Assembly: GCF_017348835.2 (NCBI RefSeq)
Contig: NZ_CP072315.1
Length of the DNA stretch: 64,000 nt
Source of the DNA: Escherichia coli
Lineage (GTDB): Bacteria > Pseudomonadota > Gammaproteobacteria > Enterobacterales > Enterobacteriaceae
Direction: 5' to 3' (one strand)
Positions 2,443 through 51,595 of the stretch are shown here, one piece after another (the first letter of the stretch is position 1; the number at the start of each line of letters is the position of its first letter). A program made the translations under genes and the position numbers. The notes below the pieces were generated by a model that was not told the origin of the DNA, did not search any database, and saw only the letters and a program-made list of their open reading frames with translations.

Positions 2443-4227
2443 ATGGGTAAGCCAACAGAAGAGCAAAGACCTGTTATCGAGAATGCTAGCGCAAACAATA
2501 TGGTGATAGCAGCGCCTGGATCAGGCAAATCATTCACCATGATAGAAGCGGTTATATCGATTCTCAAAAAGTATCCATATGCAAGAATCGGGATGGTGAC
2601 CTTTACTCGCGCTGCAACAAACGCACTTGCAGCAAAGTTACAAAAGCGATTGAGCAAGAAGGATCTTGACCGGGTGCTGGTGGATACTTTTCACGGACTC
2701 GTTAAGAAGCAACTGGACATGATTCGCTGGCCGGGAAAGATGTTGATAGGGCCAGCACAGAGATCTGTCATTCACCGGGCTTTGAAAGAATCCGGTGTAA
2801 CGATGAAGTTTGCTGAAGCTGAATTCGTTATTGATGCTATCGGCAGAGAAATGGATACGGATGTGATTTCAGTTCGGCATAACAGACAACAGATCCATTT
2901 ATTTAATACCTATCAGGCGTTATGCCAGAAAGACCATGTGGCGGACCTCAATGCTCTTTCAAAATTTGTTGTCGGTCAAATGCATTCGGGAAAAATGCGC
3001 ACGTTAGATTTGACACATTTGATAGTAGACGAAGTTCAGGATACTGACTCTATACAATTCTCATGGATAGCATTGCATACAAGAGCTGGAGTCTATACGA
3101 GTATAGTTGGAGACGATGATCAGGCCATCTACTCCTTCAGATCCTCAGGAGGAGTCAAAATATTTCAACAGTTTGAAAAACACTTCAGACCTAACATATT
3201 TTACTTAAACACATGCTTTAGGTGTGAACCTGAAATTTTAGAGGTGGCCGGAGCACTGATAGGAAAGAATGTTTACCGTTATGCCAAAGAGTTACGCTCG
3301 GCAAAAAAGGGAGGAGGAAAGGTCACTTTTCGTTCATATGTAGATATGGAGGAACAGATACAGGGTATTTTAAGCCTTATAAATCAGGATCCACATGGAT
3401 GGGCAATTCTAAGCCGCAATAATGCTCACTTGGATGAGCTAGAAAGTTTGATCGAACAGCCAGTAATTCGTTACGGAGGTAAATCATTCTGGGATGAAAA
3501 AGAAACAAGCGATGTGTTAAGCCTTATGGCCTTTTTCCGACAATCAAATGATCCTCGCTTAATGAAGAGAGTATTGGCATTGTTTGGAGAACAGGAATCA
3601 GTTTTGGATGATGTGGCATTGAGTATGAGAGGAAGAAAAGTTACTTTTGGCGACCTTGCCATCCCGGAGGACAGTTCTCTCGAAACAAAAACATTACATT
3701 CAAACTTCGTGCGCTTTACCCAGGAAAGTACTGATAAAGTTGAGATAGCAAAACGTTTCGCCAACCTTACGAAATGGATGGAATCGTCGTCAATCAAGAT
3801 GAGGAGTAATAAAGGTACAGCAACCTTAACAAAAATTGCTTTAGACACTTGTAAACAGTGGGCAGAAAAGACTGGTTGGATGAATATGATCAATCGTGCT
3901 GCTGCAATGTCATTAGGCCCTAGGAAGAAGGACGAGGAATACAGCCCAGAGAAAGTAGTCCTATCAACCTTGCATGGTTCAAAGGGTCTTGAGTGGAATA
4001 AAGTAATAATAATGAGTTGTAATGCGGATCAGATACCAAGTAAAAGATCAGTTGGGGAGGAGGCAATAGAAGAAGAAAGACGTTTGCTTTATGTTGGATT
4101 TACGCGTGCAGAAAAGCAACTTTTTGTAATGTGGTATGGTGACCCTTCTTTCTTTTTAAGAGAATGCAGTGAAGAAAAGATAAAAGAAGCAGCTAATATT
4201 CGAATTTCTCCAGTTTATACAGAATAA
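2443..4227 (+). CDS. UvrD/Rep-type superfamily-1 DNA helicase
   Basis: Walker A AAPGSGKS, DEVQDTD (motif II), VGDDDQAIYSFR, C-terminal LHGSKGLEW and LLYVGFTRA. Confidence 0.85.
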   Translation: MGKPTEEQRPVIENASANNMVIAAPGSGKSFTMIEAVISILKKYPYARIGMVTFTRAATNALAAKLQKRLSKKDLDRVLVDTFHGLVKKQLDMIRWPGKMLIGPAQRSVIHRALKESGVTMKFAEAEFVIDAIGREMDTDVISVRHNRQQIHLFNTYQALCQKDHVADLNALSKFVVGQMHSGKMRTLDLTHLIVDEVQDTDSIQFSWIALHTRAGVYTSIVGDDDQAIYSFRSSGGVKIFQQFEKHFRPNIFYLNTCFRCEPEILEVAGALIGKNVYRYAKELRSAKKGGGKVTFRSYVDMEEQIQGILSLINQDPHGWAILSRNNAHLDELESLIEQPVIRYGGKSFWDEKETSDVLSLMAFFRQSNDPRLMKRVLALFGEQESVLDDVALSMRGRKVTFGDLAIPEDSSLETKTLHSNFVRFTQESTDKVEIAKRFANLTKWMESSSIKMRSNKGTATLTKIALDTCKQWAEKTGWMNMINRAAAMSLGPRKKDEEYSPEKVVLSTLHGSKGLEWNKVIIMSCNADQIPSKRSVGEEAIEEERRLLYVGFTRAEKQLFVMWYGDPSFFLRECSEEKIKEAANIRISPVYTE

Positions 4228-21769: not shown

Positions 21770-22750
21770 ATGAGCCTGGAGAAACGTATGAGTTATGACG
21801 ATTTGCCCTATTTTCGTGACCAGATTCTGGAACGTATCGACTCGCTTAAGTGTTTTCTTTCGAACACCCCCCCGCTGATGGCAAACCTGATGACTGTCTC
21901 CACCGTATCTCGAACAGAAGAGCGACTGAAGCAGGTTAAACCCATCAGGGTTAGTGTTAAAGACGATGCTTCGGTTGAGGAAATTATTCAGGCACTTACT
22001 GACATCTGTGTGGATGACATAGAGTCATTAAGTCATGATTCCACCAAAGTGACCACTAAATACCCGGGTCTTATCATTGTCCCAGAAAGAGCAGATCTTC
22101 TCGAAAGCTTGATCACATCTATAAATGAAGCAAAAAATGATTTTGCTGCGGCAATGAGGCGTATCGATAATAAAAAGAATGTCCGTTTTGATAAAGTGCA
22201 CAAGAAGCTCCCGGGCCTTGTCGCTATGCACTCAACAAGAAATGTCCTTTTCATCAAGTCCCAGCTTAAAAAAGTTACTTTTTCATGGCGGCTAAACCGA
22301 AACCAGGAAGTTAAAACAGCAGAGCAACTTGTGAGTTTGTTGGAGCGCAGGAGAGCCTCAGAAGTAAAAAATGTAGCAACTACCAATTTGAATGTCGTGT
22401 CTAATATCGATAAGGCTTTACACCGTCTTGAATTTCACCCACTGAAGCAGGGCGAATCTTATCGCCTTTGTCGAACTAACTCTTTCCCTGTTCCGATTGC
22501 TCACATTTTTGCATTTAGGCCTGAAGGGCAGGAACGAAACGGGAATAAATATGCTGAGACTGATTATTCAGTAGTAAAAGCATCCTTGCCCATTTTCGCA
22601 GCAGGCAACATACCTCAATTAAAAACGCTCTCTGACTGGGCTCCTGAAAACAGCCAGGGCCCGTCCAACCAACGGAAGCTGAGCCTGAAATATACAGAAC
22701 TCGTGCCGGGGGCTGAGCTGGGCATTTTCATTGTCAGCCCCGAAAATTAA
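21770..22750 (+). CDS. Tus-like protein (replication terminus-binding family), tentative
   Basis: VHKKLPGLVAMHSTRNVLF...VTFSWRLNRNQEVKTAEQLVSLLERR resembles my recollection of E. coli Tus [52 protein letters not shown]; similar length. Not verified by alignment. Confidence 0.45.
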   Translation: MSLEKRMSYDDLPYFRDQILERIDSLKCFLSNTPPLMANLMTVSTVSRTEERLKQVKPIRVSVKDDASVEEIIQALTDICVDDIESLSHDSTKVTTKYPGLIIVPERADLLESLITSINEAKNDFAAAMRRIDNKKNVRFDKVHKKLPGLVAMHSTRNVLFIKSQLKKVTFSWRLNRNQEVKTAEQLVSLLERRRASEVKNVATTNLNVVSNIDKALHRLEFHPLKQGESYRLCRTNSFPVPIAHIFAFRPEGQERNGNKYAETDYSVVKASLPIFAAGNIPQLKTLSDWAPENSQGPSNQRKLSLKYTELVPGAELGIFIVSPEN

Positions 22751-23951: not shown

Positions 23952-23967
23952 GCGCCCGTGAGGGCGC
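23952..23967. terminator. Bidirectional hairpin between convergent genes
   Basis: GCGCCC-gtga-GGGCGC between the 23945 stop (+) and the 23967 stop (-). Confidence 0.5.
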
Positions 23968-25151
23968 TATTCATCAAAGGCATTTCGCATAAGCTTGATC
24001 ATTGCTTTTTTACCAGCTTCAATATTACGAATGTAGCGCATAACCATTTCTTCATTCGACCAGTTCCCCATTTCCATAATCTGTGGTAGCGAGTAACCTT
24101 CAATATTTAGCTGTATCGCTCCGCCTACACGAACGCTGTGCCCTGTCCAGTAACGAGTTTTAGTCTCATTTGGATAAAGCTCATTCCACATCTCTTTAAA
24201 TGCTCGTAAAAGGGAATTTTTGCTGAGCATACCGGCATCGTCCACAGTGTCTTCTTCATCTTCATCGTTCAGAAGACTTTGCTTAGCACGATAGGGTAGG
24301 TTATGCCTTTTAAGAAGTTCAGATAGCTCATTCCCCTTACTCCGAAGCTTCCAGCCGGGTGGCATATAGCCTGTATCATGGAAATTTACGGCCTGGAAAA
24401 GGAATTCATCCGGATGACTGTGCTGATCCATTTTCACGAGGTTCATCAATCTCAAGAGGCAGTTAGTTAACTGACGTGTCAGCCGGTAGGTAAGAAGTGT
24501 ACTAATGTTCGTTTTTGTACGGTATACCGTCAGGTTAAATTCACCGGTCATACTATCCAGAGACAGATCTTTCAGACGTATACGTCGAATTTCGGATGAA
24601 CGGAGCAGTGTTTCAAAGCCTGTCCAGATCAGGCACAGGTCACGAAGTTTACGAACTGAGTTTGTAGTACTGCGTAACTTTATCAGAGCCTTGAGATCGC
24701 CAATAAGAAAGGGAGTTGCCTGTTTAGTCGTCTTTCGCTTCCGGGCTTCCGATTGTTTTAAGGCTTCCAGCATGTACCATGCTTCAGACGTAATAATCCC
24801 GGGCAGGTTAAGCCCTTTTTTATGGATACTATTTAAGGCCTGAAGACAGCTGTTTATGCTGCTTCGTGACAATTTGCCTTCAAGATGCCCCATAAACGCA
24901 AGCAGAGCGTCCTCAGACACGGGGAGCGAACTTACTGGCCAGTCTGTATGCAACCGGGCATTCGCCAGATACCATTCGTTCCATACTCGTAGCCAGTGCA
25001 GATAGGTTTTAGCAGTGTTGTATCTCAGATGGGAAAAGTAACGGATCAAGCGTGAAAGCTGTTTATCATGGTTGCCGAACGTTTCCAGCTGCTGATGCAA
25101 TTCGCTTTCCGAAAACTGTCTGATCACTGATTGATTCTTCATCCTGCTCAC
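23967..25151 (-). CDS. Tyrosine site-specific recombinase (phage-integrase family)
   Basis: C-terminal catalytic signature HSVRVGGA (H-x-x-R) and the Tyr in MVMRYIRN; upstream Arg in LRSSEIRRIRLKDL. Confidence 0.8.
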   Translation of the reverse strand: MSRMKNQSVIRQFSESELHQQLETFGNHDKQLSRLIRYFSHLRYNTAKTYLHWLRVWNEWYLANARLHTDWPVSSLPVSEDALLAFMGHLEGKLSRSSINSCLQALNSIHKKGLNLPGIITSEAWYMLEALKQSEARKRKTTKQATPFLIGDLKALIKLRSTTNSVRKLRDLCLIWTGFETLLRSSEIRRIRLKDLSLDSMTGEFNLTVYRTKTNISTLLTYRLTRQLTNCLLRLMNLVKMDQHSHPDEFLFQAVNFHDTGYMPPGWKLRSKGNELSELLKRHNLPYRAKQSLLNDEDEEDTVDDAGMLSKNSLLRAFKEMWNELYPNETKTRYWTGHSVRVGGAIQLNIEGYSLPQIMEMGNWSNEEMVMRYIRNIEAGKKAMIKLMRNAFDE

Positions 25152-48261: not shown

Positions 48262-48633
48262 TTACAGAAATGGAATTAAAAAGTGGTGATGCTGGGCACG
48301 TTTCTTTTCCAGCCGGGGTTTAAGCCAGAGCTGAAACTCATTCAACTTCTCAGCAGCCAAAACCGCTTCAACGGGGAAAACTTTATATTTACCCTGTTGC
48401 TGAGGTTCACCCAGCCATCGCCTGATGGCTCCGTCAGTCCATAAACGAGTCTCTTTTAGCCTAGTTACAGTGACCCATTTTCTGGACCATTCATCAAATT
48501 GTCGCTGGCGATCCCGATAACGTTGTTCTTCCTGCTGCCGAAGCCACTCGCGATCAACAGCAAATTTTCGGTATCCAACAAAGAGCCCTTGTACTTTGGC
48601 CATGTCATATTCCGGTTGCTTAGAGTTACTCAT
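48262..48633 (-). CDS. Hypothetical protein (123 aa), basic/Arg-rich
   Basis: ORF only; Arg/Gln-rich helical central region. Confidence 0.4.
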   Translation of the reverse strand: MSNSKQPEYDMAKVQGLFVGYRKFAVDREWLRQQEEQRYRDRQRQFDEWSRKWVTVTRLKETRLWTDGAIRRWLGEPQQQGKYKVFPVEAVLAAEKLNEFQLWLKPRLEKKRAQHHHFLIPFL

Positions 48634-48975
48634 TCAACCAAAACCTAAACGTCGATACAAACTCTGTTTCATAACCAGGGTTTTATCCTTACCGCGACAG
48701 TAAGTAACAGGGGCTGCATAAACCGGTCATTTAGTCCGTTATGCAAAAATTATTGAGGATCCGGGCTGTTAAACTGTTCTTCCTCTTTCGCTTCCGGTGA
48801 AAAGGGGAGGTGTCACCCTGCGAGCCCGTGTAGTGAAAGGGATTCGTCGTAATACAGGCCAAAGGCTAACATGACCGCAAAGGACGCCCGGGCGACCGGA
48901 TACCTGCCGGGTTGTGCGATGTAAAATCCGGAAGCAGTGATAACACAAACAGGCCCCTACAGCGTAAGGATTGTG

Positions 48976-49368
48976 ATGGACGATAAAGAGCAGTTTACGA
49001 ATCTTGTGGCAAAGCATGCCTCCGGACTCACCGAAGAGCAGCTGGCCGGGTACGATGCCTGTTCCCTGGATGGTGAATGCGTCACGCCTTCATACGAGGT
49101 TTTCCGGGGGTATCGTACCCGCCACACACTGGATGAATTTCTGGAGATGGCCATATCGCTGAATGCCATCCACCCGGATGAATATTTAACGGATATGCTG
49201 CTGAAGCCTCATGAGGTGATCGGCGCTCTGGCCGATGAAGGCGACCAGCTGAACAACGCCACCCCGGTTTATTTCTTTCCGGATACCGGCGTCTATGCAG
49301 CGGCCGTTAGTGAAACCCGGGTGCTCGATGCCTGGCTTTGCTGGCCATGCTACCCGGCGAACTGGTAA
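48976..49368 (+). CDS. Hypothetical protein (130 aa)
   Basis: ATG at 48976 with AAGGA RBS; track start 48937 is GTG. Confidence 0.45.
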   Translation: MDDKEQFTNLVAKHASGLTEEQLAGYDACSLDGECVTPSYEVFRGYRTRHTLDEFLEMAISLNAIHPDEYLTDMLLKPHEVIGALADEGDQLNNATPVYFFPDTGVYAAAVSETRVLDAWLCWPCYPANW

Positions 49369-49436
49369 CGCGGCCGTTGGAATTGCACCGGCCGGATACG
49401 AATTTAACCGATCCCGTGGCGGGAAGGCTATCAGAG

Positions 49437-49689
49437 TTGCATGTCCTCATCCCTCAAGCCCCCTGCCAGGCCCCAACGTGCTGTCAGGCTTCGCCTGATT
49501 CCCGATCTGCGCCGATACTTCAGCCGATAACTTTTTGTTTTCTTTTTATTTTCTTCCCATTTCCTCAAAAATCGCGGGCGGCGTGGACAGGGCACCATTG
49601 CCGCATGTGGGGTCTTAATAAGGGCAGGGTGGTCAGTTTTGCTCGATGCCATGGGTAGGCCCTCCCCTTCATGGGATGAGGACATGCAA
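49437..49689. repeat. Element bounded by perfect 17-bp terminal inverted repeats (MITE-like or large stem-loop)
   Basis: TTGCATGTCCTCATCCC at 49437-49453 and its exact reverse complement at 49673-49689, ~220 bp apart, with no convincing ORF inside. Confidence 0.5.
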
Positions 49690-49842
49690 GTAAGCTAACT
49701 ATCTGAAATGACGAAGGTTCATTTGGTGAATGTCGCTTCATATTAATGTTGTGTCACTTATGATCGTATGTAGCTGGTTGCAAAGAGGAGCGATGAGACA
49801 ATAAAGTTGTATCGCTAACAAGATTTATGCTGCCACATAGTA

Positions 49843-49941
49843 ACAGCCTAAAAGTTGTACGCCCTATTTAACAGCTTTTAGGCTGTTAATTTGATATTAC
49901 AGCTTTTAGGGTGTATGTTTAGGAAACAGCCTGCAAGGTGT
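49843..49941 (+). promoter_or_regulatory. Four evenly spaced operator-like repeats upstream of hipB
   Basis: ACAGC-N6-GTTGT (49843), ACAGC-ttttag-GCTGT (49871, perfect palindrome), ACAGC-ttttag-GGTGT (49899), ACAGC-ctgcaa-GGTGT (49926); spacing 27-28 bp, ending 28 nt before the hipB ATG. Confidence 0.6.
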
Positions 49942-49968
49942 ATCAGAGGAAACTACTGAGGCCAGCTT

Positions 49969-50265
49969 ATGATCAATAATGATTACCCGTTAAACACGCT
50001 CAACCAGCTGCGTCCCTTGCTCATTGGTTTTCGCAAGGCGAATGGCCTGACGCAAAAAGACCTGTCCGAAAGGTTAGGCGTCACTCAACAGACATACTCA
50101 CGTCTGGAAGCCAACCCTGCCAGTGCGAGCATTGAACGGCTATTCAAGGTGTTTTCCATCCTGGGCGTAAAAATCAGCTTCTCCTCGGCAACCACCTCTT
50201 CAGAGAGGAAGCAGACGGAAGAAATGCTTAAATCAAACTCACCTGCACGACAGGAGGATTGGTAA
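49969..50265 (+). CDS. hipB: HipB antitoxin (XRE-family HTH repressor)
   Basis: 98 aa; LIGFRKANGLTQKDLSERLGVTQQTYSRLEANP matches HipB helix-turn-helix; 4 nt upstream of hipA. Confidence 0.85.
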   Translation: MINNDYPLNTLNQLRPLLIGFRKANGLTQKDLSERLGVTQQTYSRLEANPASASIERLFKVFSILGVKISFSSATTSSERKQTEEMLKSNSPARQEDW

Positions 50266-50269
50266 CGAT

Positions 50270-51595
50270 ATGAGCCGGAAACAGCAACGTCTGGTAATTT
50301 GGATGAACGGCATCAAAGTCGGGTACTGGGAAAAAAGCAAAGGGGTAGACAGCTTAGAATACCTTCCTGAATGGGTTGCTGACGAACAGGGAAGGCCGCT
50401 GTCATTGTCCCTTCCTTTTACTCCCGGGAACCAGGTCTGGCGTGGAAATGTGGTACGTGACTATTTTGATAATTTACTGCCGGACAGCGAAGGCATACGC
50501 AGACGTCTGGCAATGCGTTACAAGGCCGATAGCCTGGAGCCTTTTGATCTGCTGACGGAGCTGGGAAAAGACTGCGTGGGCGCGATACAGCTGCTTCATG
50601 ACGGAGATGAACCCACTGATTTATATTCCGTGAAGTATCACCCGCTTACTGAATCAGAAATTGCGGCAACTTTGCGTAATACCACGGAGACATTGCTACC
50701 GGGCAGGCCAGAAGATAACGACGACTTACGTTTATCTATTGCCGGTGCTCAGGAGAAAACAGCCCTACTGTGGCATGAAGATCGGTGGTGTATGCCGGAG
50801 GGTAATACACCAACGACGCATATATTCAAGCTACCGCTCGGACTTGTGGGGAACATGAAAGCCGACATGAGCTCGTCGGTTGAAAATGAATGGCTCTGCT
50901 CGGTACTTCTCGGCCAGTACGGGCTCCCCGTGGCAAGAACGCAGATTGCTCACTTTGAAGATCAGAAAGCGCTGGTGGTAGAACGTTTTGACCGAAAATG
51001 GTCAGGAGACGGACAATGGATCATTCGTTTACCCCAGGAGGATATGTGTCAGGCCCTGGGCGTTTCGCCATTACGAAAATATCAGGCGGACGGCGGGCCA
51101 GGTATATCGGAAATTATGGAGGTTCTGAGTAATTCAGACCGTGCTGAGCGTGACAAAGCGCAGTTTTTTATGACGCAGATAATTTTCTGGATGATGGCCG
51201 CAACAGATGGCCACGCTAAAAATTTCAGTATTTCTATTGGGCCACAGGGACGTTATCACCTTACACCAAACTATGATGTGTTGTCGGCATGGCCGGTGAT
51301 CGGTCATGGGAACAATCAGATATCCTGGCAGAAGTGCAAACTGGCGATGGCCGTACGTGGCAGTAGCAACTATTACCAGATATATCGAATACAACGACGC
51401 CACTGGATCAGGCATGGTGAGATAACCGGCCTGAGTAAACAGCAGACAGAGGCGATGATAGAGGAAATCATCGCCAGAACCCCGGGTGTCATTGAACGTG
51501 TTAGCGGGCTTCTTCCGGACCAGTTCCCCCAGCAGCTTGCGGAAAGTATTTTTGATGGAATGAGGCAGCAATGCAGGCGCCTGGCTGAGAAATGA
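50270..51595 (+). CDS. hipA: HipA-family Ser/Thr kinase toxin
   Basis: 441 aa; blocks shared with E. coli HipA (PLSLSLP, FDNLLPDS, SIAGAQEKTALL, ATDGHAKNFS, RLPQEDMCQ). Confidence 0.9.
   Translation: MSRKQQRLVIWMNGIKVGYWEKSKGVDSLEYLPEWVADEQGRPLSLSLPFTPGNQVWRGNVVRDYFDNLLPDSEGIRRRLAMRYKADSLEPFDLLTELGKDCVGAIQLLHDGDEPTDLYSVKYHPLTESEIAATLRNTTETLLPGRPEDNDDLRLSIAGAQEKTALLWHEDRWCMPEGNTPTTHIFKLPLGLVGNMKADMSSSVENEWLCSVLLGQYGLPVARTQIAHFEDQKALVVERFDRKWSGDGQWIIRLPQEDMCQALGVSPLRKYQADGGPGISEIMEVLSNSDRAERDKAQFFMTQIIFWMMAATDGHAKNFSISIGPQGRYHLTPNYDVLSAWPVIGHGNNQISWQKCKLAMAVRGSSNYYQIYRIQRRHWIRHGEITGLSKQQTEAMIEEIIARTPGVIERVSGLLPDQFPQQLAESIFDGMRQQCRRLAEK

Follow-up and report, generated by a model that had tools for sequence, protein, structure and literature searches.

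A strongly conserved non-coding element with covarying terminal arms in IncHI plasmid backbones: a candidate RNA domain behind ORF143

Introduction

Long-range, full helices that bracket a segment of RNA are found in RNase III stems, such as those flanking the 16S and 23S rRNAs and the intercistronic stems of phage T7, where the helix shows compensatory change and coincides with the boundaries of the unit. The plasmid element described here is alike in all of these respects. However, its predicted helix has 15–17 bp, against roughly 20 bp for strong RNase III substrates, and the 219 nt inside it correspond to no known RNA and are not detectably structured. The fold-back (tac-fbi) of the hok family offers a second resemblance, since it is also plasmid-borne, extends over a few hundred nucleotides and relies on covarying end-to-end pairing, whereas the present element follows a gene and has neither a conserved toxin ORF, nor an antisense promoter, nor an Rfam hok/sok match. 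A third comparison is with the Frpo and ssi sites of the leading regions of IncF and IncI plasmids, which are likewise non-coding, a few hundred nucleotides long and of inverted-repeat character, and which lie on conjugative plasmids upstream of co-oriented accessory or anti-defence-type genes. In contrast to these sites, the element has no sequence similarity to them, no extended stem and no −35/−10 boxes, its folding energy is weaker, and it is single-copy and far from oriT.

Several systems that act as double-stranded DNA also share features with the locus. The Tus-bound Ter pair of the R6K terminus consists of two inverted copies of ~20 bp, and the plasmid studied here encodes a Tus-family protein; however, the match of the arms to the Ter consensus is insignificant and the conserved core would be left unexplained. 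Invertible segments of the fimS type resemble it in comprising 250–300 bp between short inverted repeats, in being intergenic and in sharing their replicon with a tyrosine recombinase, whereas the element occurs in one orientation (in more than 1,400 assemblies) and lacks an internal promoter. Miniature inverted-repeat transposable elements (MITEs), both of the ERIC/IRU type and derived from insertion sequences (ISs), are alike in their size of ~250 bp and their perfect terminal inverted repeats. Unlike them, the element is single-copy, lacks a target-site duplication and is inherited vertically at a single locus, and its interior is asymmetric and strongly conserved. Integron attC sites, finally, have R''/R' core sites of the form RYYYAAC ... 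GTTRRRY and a length of ~57–141 nt.

Plasmids of the IncHI1 and IncHI2 groups are major carriers of multidrug resistance, including the typhoid multidrug-resistance plasmids such as pHCM1, and their backbones consist largely of genes annotated as 'hypothetical'. The element is a single-copy, unannotated and strongly conserved non-coding part of this IncHI resistance-plasmid backbone.

Position and Geometry of the Element

The window, that is, the whole stretch of 64,000 nucleotides that was analysed, belongs to an IncHI2 plasmid and contains at positions 49437–49689 a 253-bp element whose arms are complementary at 17 of 17 positions and enclose 219 nt. The original prediction had described perfect 17-bp terminal inverted repeats with precisely this extent, around ~220 bp without a credible ORF and between an unknown gene and the hipBA promoter, and this description holds in full: the candidate ORFs of the element are broken or frameshifted in relatives, ORF143 lies upstream and hipB/hipA lie downstream. 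A perfect inverted repeat with arms of 17 nt or longer inside a 500-nt span is expected ~0.002 times per 64 kb and, in a scan of the whole window, the arms are the sole inverted repeat of at least 14 nt with arms more than 12 nt apart. The parts of the element are as follows.

49437..49453, + strand: left (5') arm TTGCATGTCCTCATCCC, the perfect complement of 49673–49689, invariant in 9 variants of IncHI1/HI2 type
49454..49595, + strand: conserved, C/T-rich loop core, in which the blocks listed below are invariant in 12 variants
49461–49465, + strand: CCCTG block of the loop core, invariant in 12 variants
49483..49499, + strand: small hairpin GTCAGGC-TTC-GCCTGAT, with a stem of 6–7 bp and a TTC loop, found by RNAalifold in both alignments
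49531–49557, + strand: T-rich tract CTTTTTGTTTTCTTTTTATTTTCTTCC of 27 nt, an invariant block of the loop core
49588–49595, + strand: CAGGGCAC block, invariant, at the end of the loop core
49596..49672, + strand: variable part of the loop, free in sequence and nearly fixed in length (77–79 nt in nine variants)
49673..49689, + strand: right (3') arm GGGATGAGGACATGCAA, the complement of the left arm

Homology with IncHI2A, IncHI1 and other lineages ends exactly at the last base of the right arm. In the hairpin at 49483–49499, the six inner pairs are invariant, so that covariation speaks neither in its favour nor against it.

Distribution and Copy Number

The element matches, at 100% identity, unannotated DNA of many conjugative plasmids of 200–370 kb, whose hosts are Escherichia, Salmonella, Enterobacter, Klebsiella and Citrobacter; most of the plasmids that bear it are typed as IncHI2, IncHI2A or IncHI1 and carry a MOBH relaxase. 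A blastn search of 72,556 plasmids located it at 1,451 places in 1,451 plasmid records, that is, in a single copy per replicon, and the matches are limited to IncHI-type plasmids and their relatives. In NZ_CP032993.1, it occupies the IncHI backbone between a hypothetical gene and hipBA, downstream of a tellurite-resistance cluster, and no second copy of an arm was found in the ~175 kb of this record that were examined. Moreover, no resemblance was detected between the element and the plasmid's own oriT or other regions of the plasmid. Although better conserved than the genes that surround it, the element carries no annotation in any of the records examined.

Beyond plasmids, the arm 17-mer gave 17 single hits, in unrelated taxa and never paired, among 100,044 species-representative genomes, where a few tens of matches are expected by chance; around the one enterobacterial match, the sequence is unrelated and has no similarity to the element. 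A scan with the core pattern returned 19 metagenome contigs, all with the same family in the same orientation, and zero matches in the species genomes or in IMG/VR. A full-text literature search yielded no mention of the arm sequence, no Rfam family matched the element at E <= 1 in a search of positions 48500–50500 and, among the motifs that were looked for by eye (sigma-54, RfaH ops, DnaA box, IHF, Xer/cer core and enrichment of the CsrA GGA motif), none fits or is conserved. The element is undescribed in the annotation, in Rfam and in the literature searched, and its kind, a cis-encoded and covarying long-range helix, is already known.

Conservation of the Parts

When other lineages are compared with the window, the parts of the locus differ sharply in identity. 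In lineages whose ORF143 is 69% identical in nucleotides and 59–62% in amino acids, the left arm and the next ~142 nt (159 nt together) retain 86–89% identity, while the spacer in front of them falls to 54–60%. The same 159 nt of arm and core retain 74% identity in L013, the most distant variant, which is partial. The variable ~78 nt of the loop show 50–63% identity, approximately the level of unrelated sequence, and the right arm is 100% identical despite this variable neighbour; the DNA past it drops to ~50%. Ten variants of the element have a total length of 252–254 nt, whereas the related L063 and L066 reach 258 nt. The conservation of the core is independent of reading frame, and the element is under purifying selection.

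ORF143 and the Flanking Regions

The neighbourhood of the element in the window comprises the following features.

48661..48975, + strand: conserved leader preceding ORF143, where the conserved module has its left edge
48976..49368, + strand: ORF143, annotated with 130 aa (a GTG at 48937 gives 143 aa), the constant upstream partner of the element
49369..49436, + strand: spacer from the ORF143 stop to the left arm, 67–68 nt in every lineage, with identity down to 54–60%
49412–49424, + strand: small GC-rich spacer hairpin TCCCG-TGG-CGGGA
49969–50265: hipB, downstream of the element
50270–51595: hipA, downstream of the element

The element is always found on the ORF143 strand, 67–68 nt past the stop codon in every lineage, and this fixed place holds even where the ORF143 protein is only 52–62% identical. 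The conserved module starts ~275 nt upstream of ORF143 (48661) and terminates at the 3' arm; between the window and the IncHI2A plasmids L002 and L005, homology extends from 48661 to 49689 or 49600 and is broken on both sides. Past the 3' arm, the flank varies by lineage and contains hipBA, a protease or small ORFs; in the window, the hipBA promoter and its operator repeats also lie downstream of the element. No terminator was found between ORF143 and the element or past the 3' arm, and the ORF143 leader shows no match to the sigma-70 consensus and no significant fold. In plasmid L005, an ORF143 of the window type is joined to an element of the Citrobacter type and, thus, recombination occurs between the two.

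The ORF143 protein is acidic (pI 4.3) and has no family assigned. Its relatives form a small group of 25 representatives at 50% identity, confined to mobile elements. The distant members adjoin ArdC, an RNase_T exonuclease, a TraI_2 (MOBH) relaxase or F-type transfer genes, and the element is absent there; relatives with 53% identity in another plasmid group (L009–L012) are also without it. The genes downstream of ORF143 in these element-less relatives are unrelated and, therefore, no empty site is available for comparison.

Covariation of the Arms

Diverged complete elements were recovered by searching with a distant ORF143 relative, and in the four listed here the left arm changes jointly with the right arm.

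L064: left arm TTGCATGCCATCATCCC; right arm GGGATGATGGCATGCAA
L063: left arm CTGCATGTCATCATCCC; right arm GGGATGATGACATGCAA
L061 (Lelliottia): left arm TTGCATGCCATCATCCC; right arm GGAATGATGGCATGCAA
L066: left arm CTGCATGTCATCATCCT; right arm GGGATGATGACATGCAA

Covariation was counted in an alignment of 12 sequences, in which five cells have changed on both sides. Two pairs of the arms have been switched on both sides and still pair, from U–A to C–G in two sequences and from C–G to A–U in three. In the same alignment, 98% of the helix cells pair, against 29–40% when the partners are slid, and the covariation score was reached by none of 500 shuffles; the thirteenth variant, L066, is consistent with the pattern. 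Since the changes on both sides keep the arms complementary, this comparison shows that complementarity, beyond mere sequence, has been selected. The covariation probably represents just two events within one clade. Five helix cells are unpaired, three of them as C·T at the innermost pair (L005, L006 and L024), a combination that is unpaired on either strand. Moreover, three one-sided changes occur near the helix ends, two in the alignment and one in L066: two of them read as C·A on the + strand and as G·T on the − strand, and one reads as G·U on the + strand, so these changes favour neither strand.

Folding of the Interior

Folded at minimum energy, the window's copy of the element gives a long imperfect hairpin (z = −4.2 for RNA and −4.5 for DNA). 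RNAalifold keeps nothing beyond the terminal helix, the small hairpin and a 5-bp pairing of CCCTG with CAGGG, which is invariant; the covariation terms are about zero. Without their arms, the 12 interiors all fold no better than dinucleotide-shuffled sequences, whichever strand is taken (z between −2.5 and +1.6). The long imperfect hairpin spanning the element was consequently rejected: its pairs are unconserved, its G-rich partner blocks are lost in the Citrobacter-type variant, and the interiors are about equal to shuffles. The comparison points to an architecture in which a closing helix of 15–17 bp bounds a loop that is mostly without structure and whose sequence is conserved over its 5' two-thirds. 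A long structured RNA had been among the original proposals, and it is supported only as regards the terminal helix, where compensatory changes are found, and not for the interior, which is no more structured than shuffles.

A Candidate RNA Domain at the End of the ORF143 Unit

We tentatively read the element as a cis-encoded RNA domain located 3'-terminally in the transcription unit of ORF143 on IncHI plasmids, a reading that seems plausible and still falls somewhat short of probable. We infer RNA as its identity, the + strand as its sense, processing at the helix and a loop that acts by its sequence. Transcription from upstream of ORF143 would read through the 68-nt spacer and the element, and the 17-nt arms, pairing across 236 nt, would form a perfect helix of 15–17 bp around a 219-nt loop with little structure. 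In its first ~142 nt, this loop carries invariant blocks (a C-rich stretch, the small hairpin and a U-rich tract) whose sequence could be read by a protein or by a complementary nucleic acid, whereas the helix could function as a processing or stabilising stem, in the manner of RNase III stems or of a 3' stem that blocks exonucleases. The helix might also govern what becomes of the ORF143 message, free the loop RNA and keep the message apart from the downstream cargo.

A 17-bp stem over a 219-nt loop would not readily extrude from a duplex and would, thus, need a single strand. Moreover, the conserved module looks like one transcription unit ending at the 3' arm, and an RNA from the minus strand would lack a conserved promoter, since the right flank differs between lineages. 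These three considerations together favour an RNA made by read-through from ORF143. The conservation of the loop as primary sequence, the lack of a conserved internal promoter and the lack of inversion also speak for an RNA. Against it count that no sigma-70 promoter was found for ORF143, that Rfam holds no match at E <= 1, that only the terminal helix covaries, and that the ORF143 relatives of similar divergence (L009–L012) do without the element. In addition, a symmetric DNA-binding protein co-evolving with its half-sites would give the same pattern in the arms, and the near-fixed length of the sequence-free spacer is more typical of DNA geometry.

A broader extension is possible and leans towards the doubtful: the element could represent a new family of plasmid-backbone non-coding RNAs or, just as well, a signal acting as a single strand, in either case restricted to IncHI (MOBH) plasmids. 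In such a case, the helix would present ~140 nt of invariant, unstructured and pyrimidine-rich sequence that acts in trans (as antisense, sponge or protein-binding site) on targets of the host or the plasmid, and would insulate ORF143 from the cargo.

A Possible Signal on Single-Stranded DNA

The arms could also pair in single-stranded DNA, with the element folding on the strand transferred in conjugation or on the lagging-strand template, where it would serve priming (as an ssi) or early expression; in function it would resemble Frpo and ssi, to which it is unrelated in sequence. We consider this unlikely. The setting is suggestive: the host is a conjugative MOBH plasmid, and the element lies, directly upstream of variable + strand cargo, within an extended series of genes that share an orientation pointing to the presumed oriT, which is placed at ~146.5 kb of NZ_CP032993.1, with the trh genes on one side and mobI/mobH on the other; umuDC, a DNA methyltransferase, HNH nucleases and hipBA belong to the same series. 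The ArdC, RNase_T exonuclease and TraI_2 relaxases beside distant ORF143 relatives fit the same picture. The selected complementarity of the arms is what pairing in single-stranded DNA would need, and two of the three one-sided arm changes are G·T on the minus strand. However, the presumed oriT is 83 kb away (~31 kb without the resistance insert), and the element is single-copy.

The energetics also argue against such a signal. A mapping study of single-stranded DNA promoters used a hairpin criterion below −75 kcal/mol (PMC12672017), whereas the folding energy of the element as single-stranded DNA is only −50.9 and −51.2 kcal/mol. Moreover, only 15–17 bp are reliably paired, a length that could not reconstitute −35 and −10 boxes, none of which is present on either arm. 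Similarity to Frpo-bearing IncF or IncI plasmids is lacking, all 1,451 matches being IncHI-type plasmids and their relatives. A Frpo-like promoter was, thus, rejected on folding energy, promoter boxes and sequence similarity, and the ORF143 leader is no such hairpin either.

A Possible Site in Double-Stranded DNA

Another unlikely reading, with a comparable chance of being right, is that of a site in double-stranded DNA, where the arms would be half-sites for a symmetric DNA-binding protein or a recombinase and the core an accessory platform; such a site could be a switch that undergoes inversion, a place of resolution, recombination or looping, or an opposed pair of fork-arrest sites for the plasmid's own Tus-like protein, on the pattern of the R6K terminus. 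The arms are invariant in nine lineages beside sequence at random level, their spacing is nearly fixed (252–258 nt), and the homology breaks off precisely where the right arm ends on its outer side, which resembles a recombination junction. IncHI backbones also supply candidate proteins. One is a tyrosine recombinase (window positions 23967–25151), which is generic and lies ~24 kb from the element, or a few kb in IncHI1 when inserts are discounted. The other is a divergent Tus-family protein (window positions 21788–22750; Pfam Ter, E = 4e-19), for which phmmer finds no solved chain at E <= 0.001 and, hence, no structure of E. coli Tus. Against a protein-bound site stand the stepwise, compensated changes at two arm positions, which base pairing explains more simply than a protein that changes its specificity twice. 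The ORF143 protein, for its part, is an unlikely binder of the arms because it is acidic.

The more specific forms of this reading fare worse. In-silico constructs carrying the inverted segment, of IncHI2 and of IncHI1 type, were searched with a match required over at least 80% of their length, and the inverted orientation was found in none of ~1,450 plasmid records (1,167 and 1,166 per construct), in none of 284 E. coli genomes and in none of the 19 metagenome contigs (19/19). No conserved −35/−10 candidate for an internal promoter was detected on either strand in nine variants. An inverton was rejected on this basis, with one orientation in more than 1,400 assemblies and no internal promoter that reads out over a repeat. 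As for fork arrest, aligning the arms by eye to the E. coli Ter consensus, with its G–C pair at position 6, gives agreement at no more than 8 of 16 positions in the most favourable register, which is not significant given the freedom to pick register and orientation. The window contains no significant Ter-like site, a canonical Ter-like core sits elsewhere on the plasmid, and GC skew does not switch at the element. A Tus–Ter trap was rejected on account of the insignificant likeness of the arms to Ter and the unswitched GC skew.

Mobile-Element and Coding Readings

Perfect terminal inverted repeats that enclose a short non-coding segment, and a break of synteny at the right end of the element, are what a MITE or a decayed IS remnant would show, and both had been suggested originally, together with checks that included copy number and flanking duplications. 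Such an origin fails these checks and is now very improbable. In the search for additional copies of the 17-mer, the only hits outside the family were the 17 unpaired chance matches in the 100,044 species genomes, with one pair per plasmid and no match of the core pattern in IMG/VR, and no other copy of the element exists in any replicon. The search for a flanking target-site duplication was equally negative: the window element is flanked by ...ATCAGAG and GTAAGCT... (CAGAG and GTAAG at the junctions), and the flanks of other lineages differ and show no direct repeat. Furthermore, the element keeps the same locus and orientation where the neighbouring gene is only 52–62% identical, its arms are kept up by compensatory change instead of decaying, and no transposase remnant is present, as no ORF in the element is conserved. 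The MITE architecture was abandoned because of the single copy, the fixed locus and the lack of a duplication, and the IS remnant because neither a transposase remnant nor a repetition of the arm sequence elsewhere was found. The single copy, the lack of a duplication and the fixed place behind ORF143 indicate that the element has been inherited vertically at one locus and not by transposition. An integron attC site was also rejected, since the element ends in TTGCATG...CATGCAA and has 253 nt.

A small protein gene starting at the TTG of the left arm (49437) is just as remote. Its frame is free of stops for 43–85 codons in all 12 variants, through the conserved core, and in the window the TTG is preceded, at a distance of 9 nt, by an AAGG. 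However, stop codons are rare by chance in a sequence of this C/T-rich composition, the C-termini of the frame are unrelated and of unequal length, and the codons of the window and IncHI1 differ (by eye) by ~14 non-synonymous to 5 synonymous changes, a near-neutral ratio. In a diverged clade, two compensating 1-nt indels shift the frame over the invariant GTCAGGCTTCGCCTGATT block, whose nucleotides translate as CQASPD in one clade and as FRLRLI in the other. Indels that shift the frame over invariant blocks place the conservation at the level of nucleotides and, thus, the element is non-coding. An 84-aa ORF on the minus strand and a 29-aa ORF on the plus strand were discarded because of stops in relatives. 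A hok-like type I toxin was discarded as well, since the hydrophobic run of the T-tract has ~12 residues and is flanked by prolines, with no conserved start codon and no Rfam match.

Relevance to Plasmid Biology

The element marks the exact point at which lineages differ in their cargo, be it hipBA, a protease or small ORFs. If it were a functional RNA or a single-strand signal, it would provide a new handle on plasmid establishment or regulation, a sharp marker for typing and a candidate for RNA-family databases; if it were merely the stabilising stem of the message of one small gene, its interest would be local. Plasmids carrying mcr-1 are among those that match the element.

Probable recombination at the edges of the ORF143 module

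The 253-bp conserved non-coding element (window 49437-49689) lies downstream of ORF143, and the two do not always share the same ancestry type. When compared with the window and the relative L006, the stretch 2558-3310 of the IncHI2A locus L005 is a mosaic, in which ORF143 is of the window type, with 98% identity, but is followed by a Citrobacter-type element whose right part shows about 50% identity to the window. This combination therefore places a recombination breakpoint within or beside the element. At the left end of the conserved module, homology is lost or interrupted in three relatives (L002, L005 and L022), which looks like a second hot spot for recombination or insertion.

Window 48633-48660: left boundary of the conserved module around ORF143, just 5' of a divergent 123-aa gene
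Window 49369-49436: spacer from the ORF143 stop codon to the left arm of the element, with equivalents in L007, L013, L061, L063 and L064

In the window and these five loci, the spacer keeps a constant length of 67-68 nt and retains a small GC-rich palindrome or hairpin, while the rest of its sequence cannot be aligned across lineages.

The family of ORF143 (window 48976-49368) is small and unnamed, consists of acidic proteins of about 130 aa and is carried only by mobile elements; ORF143 itself has a confident fold with no known structural relatives. In one ICE-like locus, a homologue lies 4 nt 5' of a TraI_2 (MOBH) relaxase gene and is itself preceded by ArdC and an RNase_T exonuclease.

The region upstream of hipB

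Window 49836-49942: clustered overlapping palindromes and repeats (ACAGCCTAAAAGTTGT / ACAGCTTTTAGGCTGT), immediately 5' of hipB
Window 49891-49919: sigma-70-like promoter, inside this cluster

The palindromes and repeats are probably operator sites for HipB.

Tus-family protein, Ter-like core and presumed oriT

The plasmid itself encodes a Tus-family protein (window 21788-22750; Pfam Ter, E = 4e-19), which is highly divergent. A phmmer search with this protein matched no solved protein chain, and thus not the solved E. coli Tus either. Versions about 59% identical to it occur in IncHI1 plasmids, and versions about 25% identical in some 1,300 Klebsiella plasmids.

Between tus and the element (window ~22750-49400), the offset of window coordinates relative to the related mcr-1 plasmid NZ_CP032993.1 shifts by 4,751 bp, which fits the ISApl1-mcr-1-pap2-ISApl1 insert of the latter; therefore, the window plasmid appears to lack this transposon at that insertion site. 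Two further features lie outside the window, in the stretch L043 of NZ_CP032993.1.

L043 19798-19820 (NZ_CP032993.1 144798-144820): canonical Ter-like core AATATTTAAGTTGTAACTAATAT, in a gap between genes of the Tra1 region
L043 21210-21969 (NZ_CP032993.1 146210-146969): presumed oriT region, flanked by divergent trh genes and mobI/mobH

Roughly 1.5 kb separates the core from the presumed oriT, and at position 6 the core has T, whereas E. coli Ter sites have G. In the presumed oriT region, a CATAGGGTCAC(T)-type repeat occurs five times or more, with copies in both orientations.
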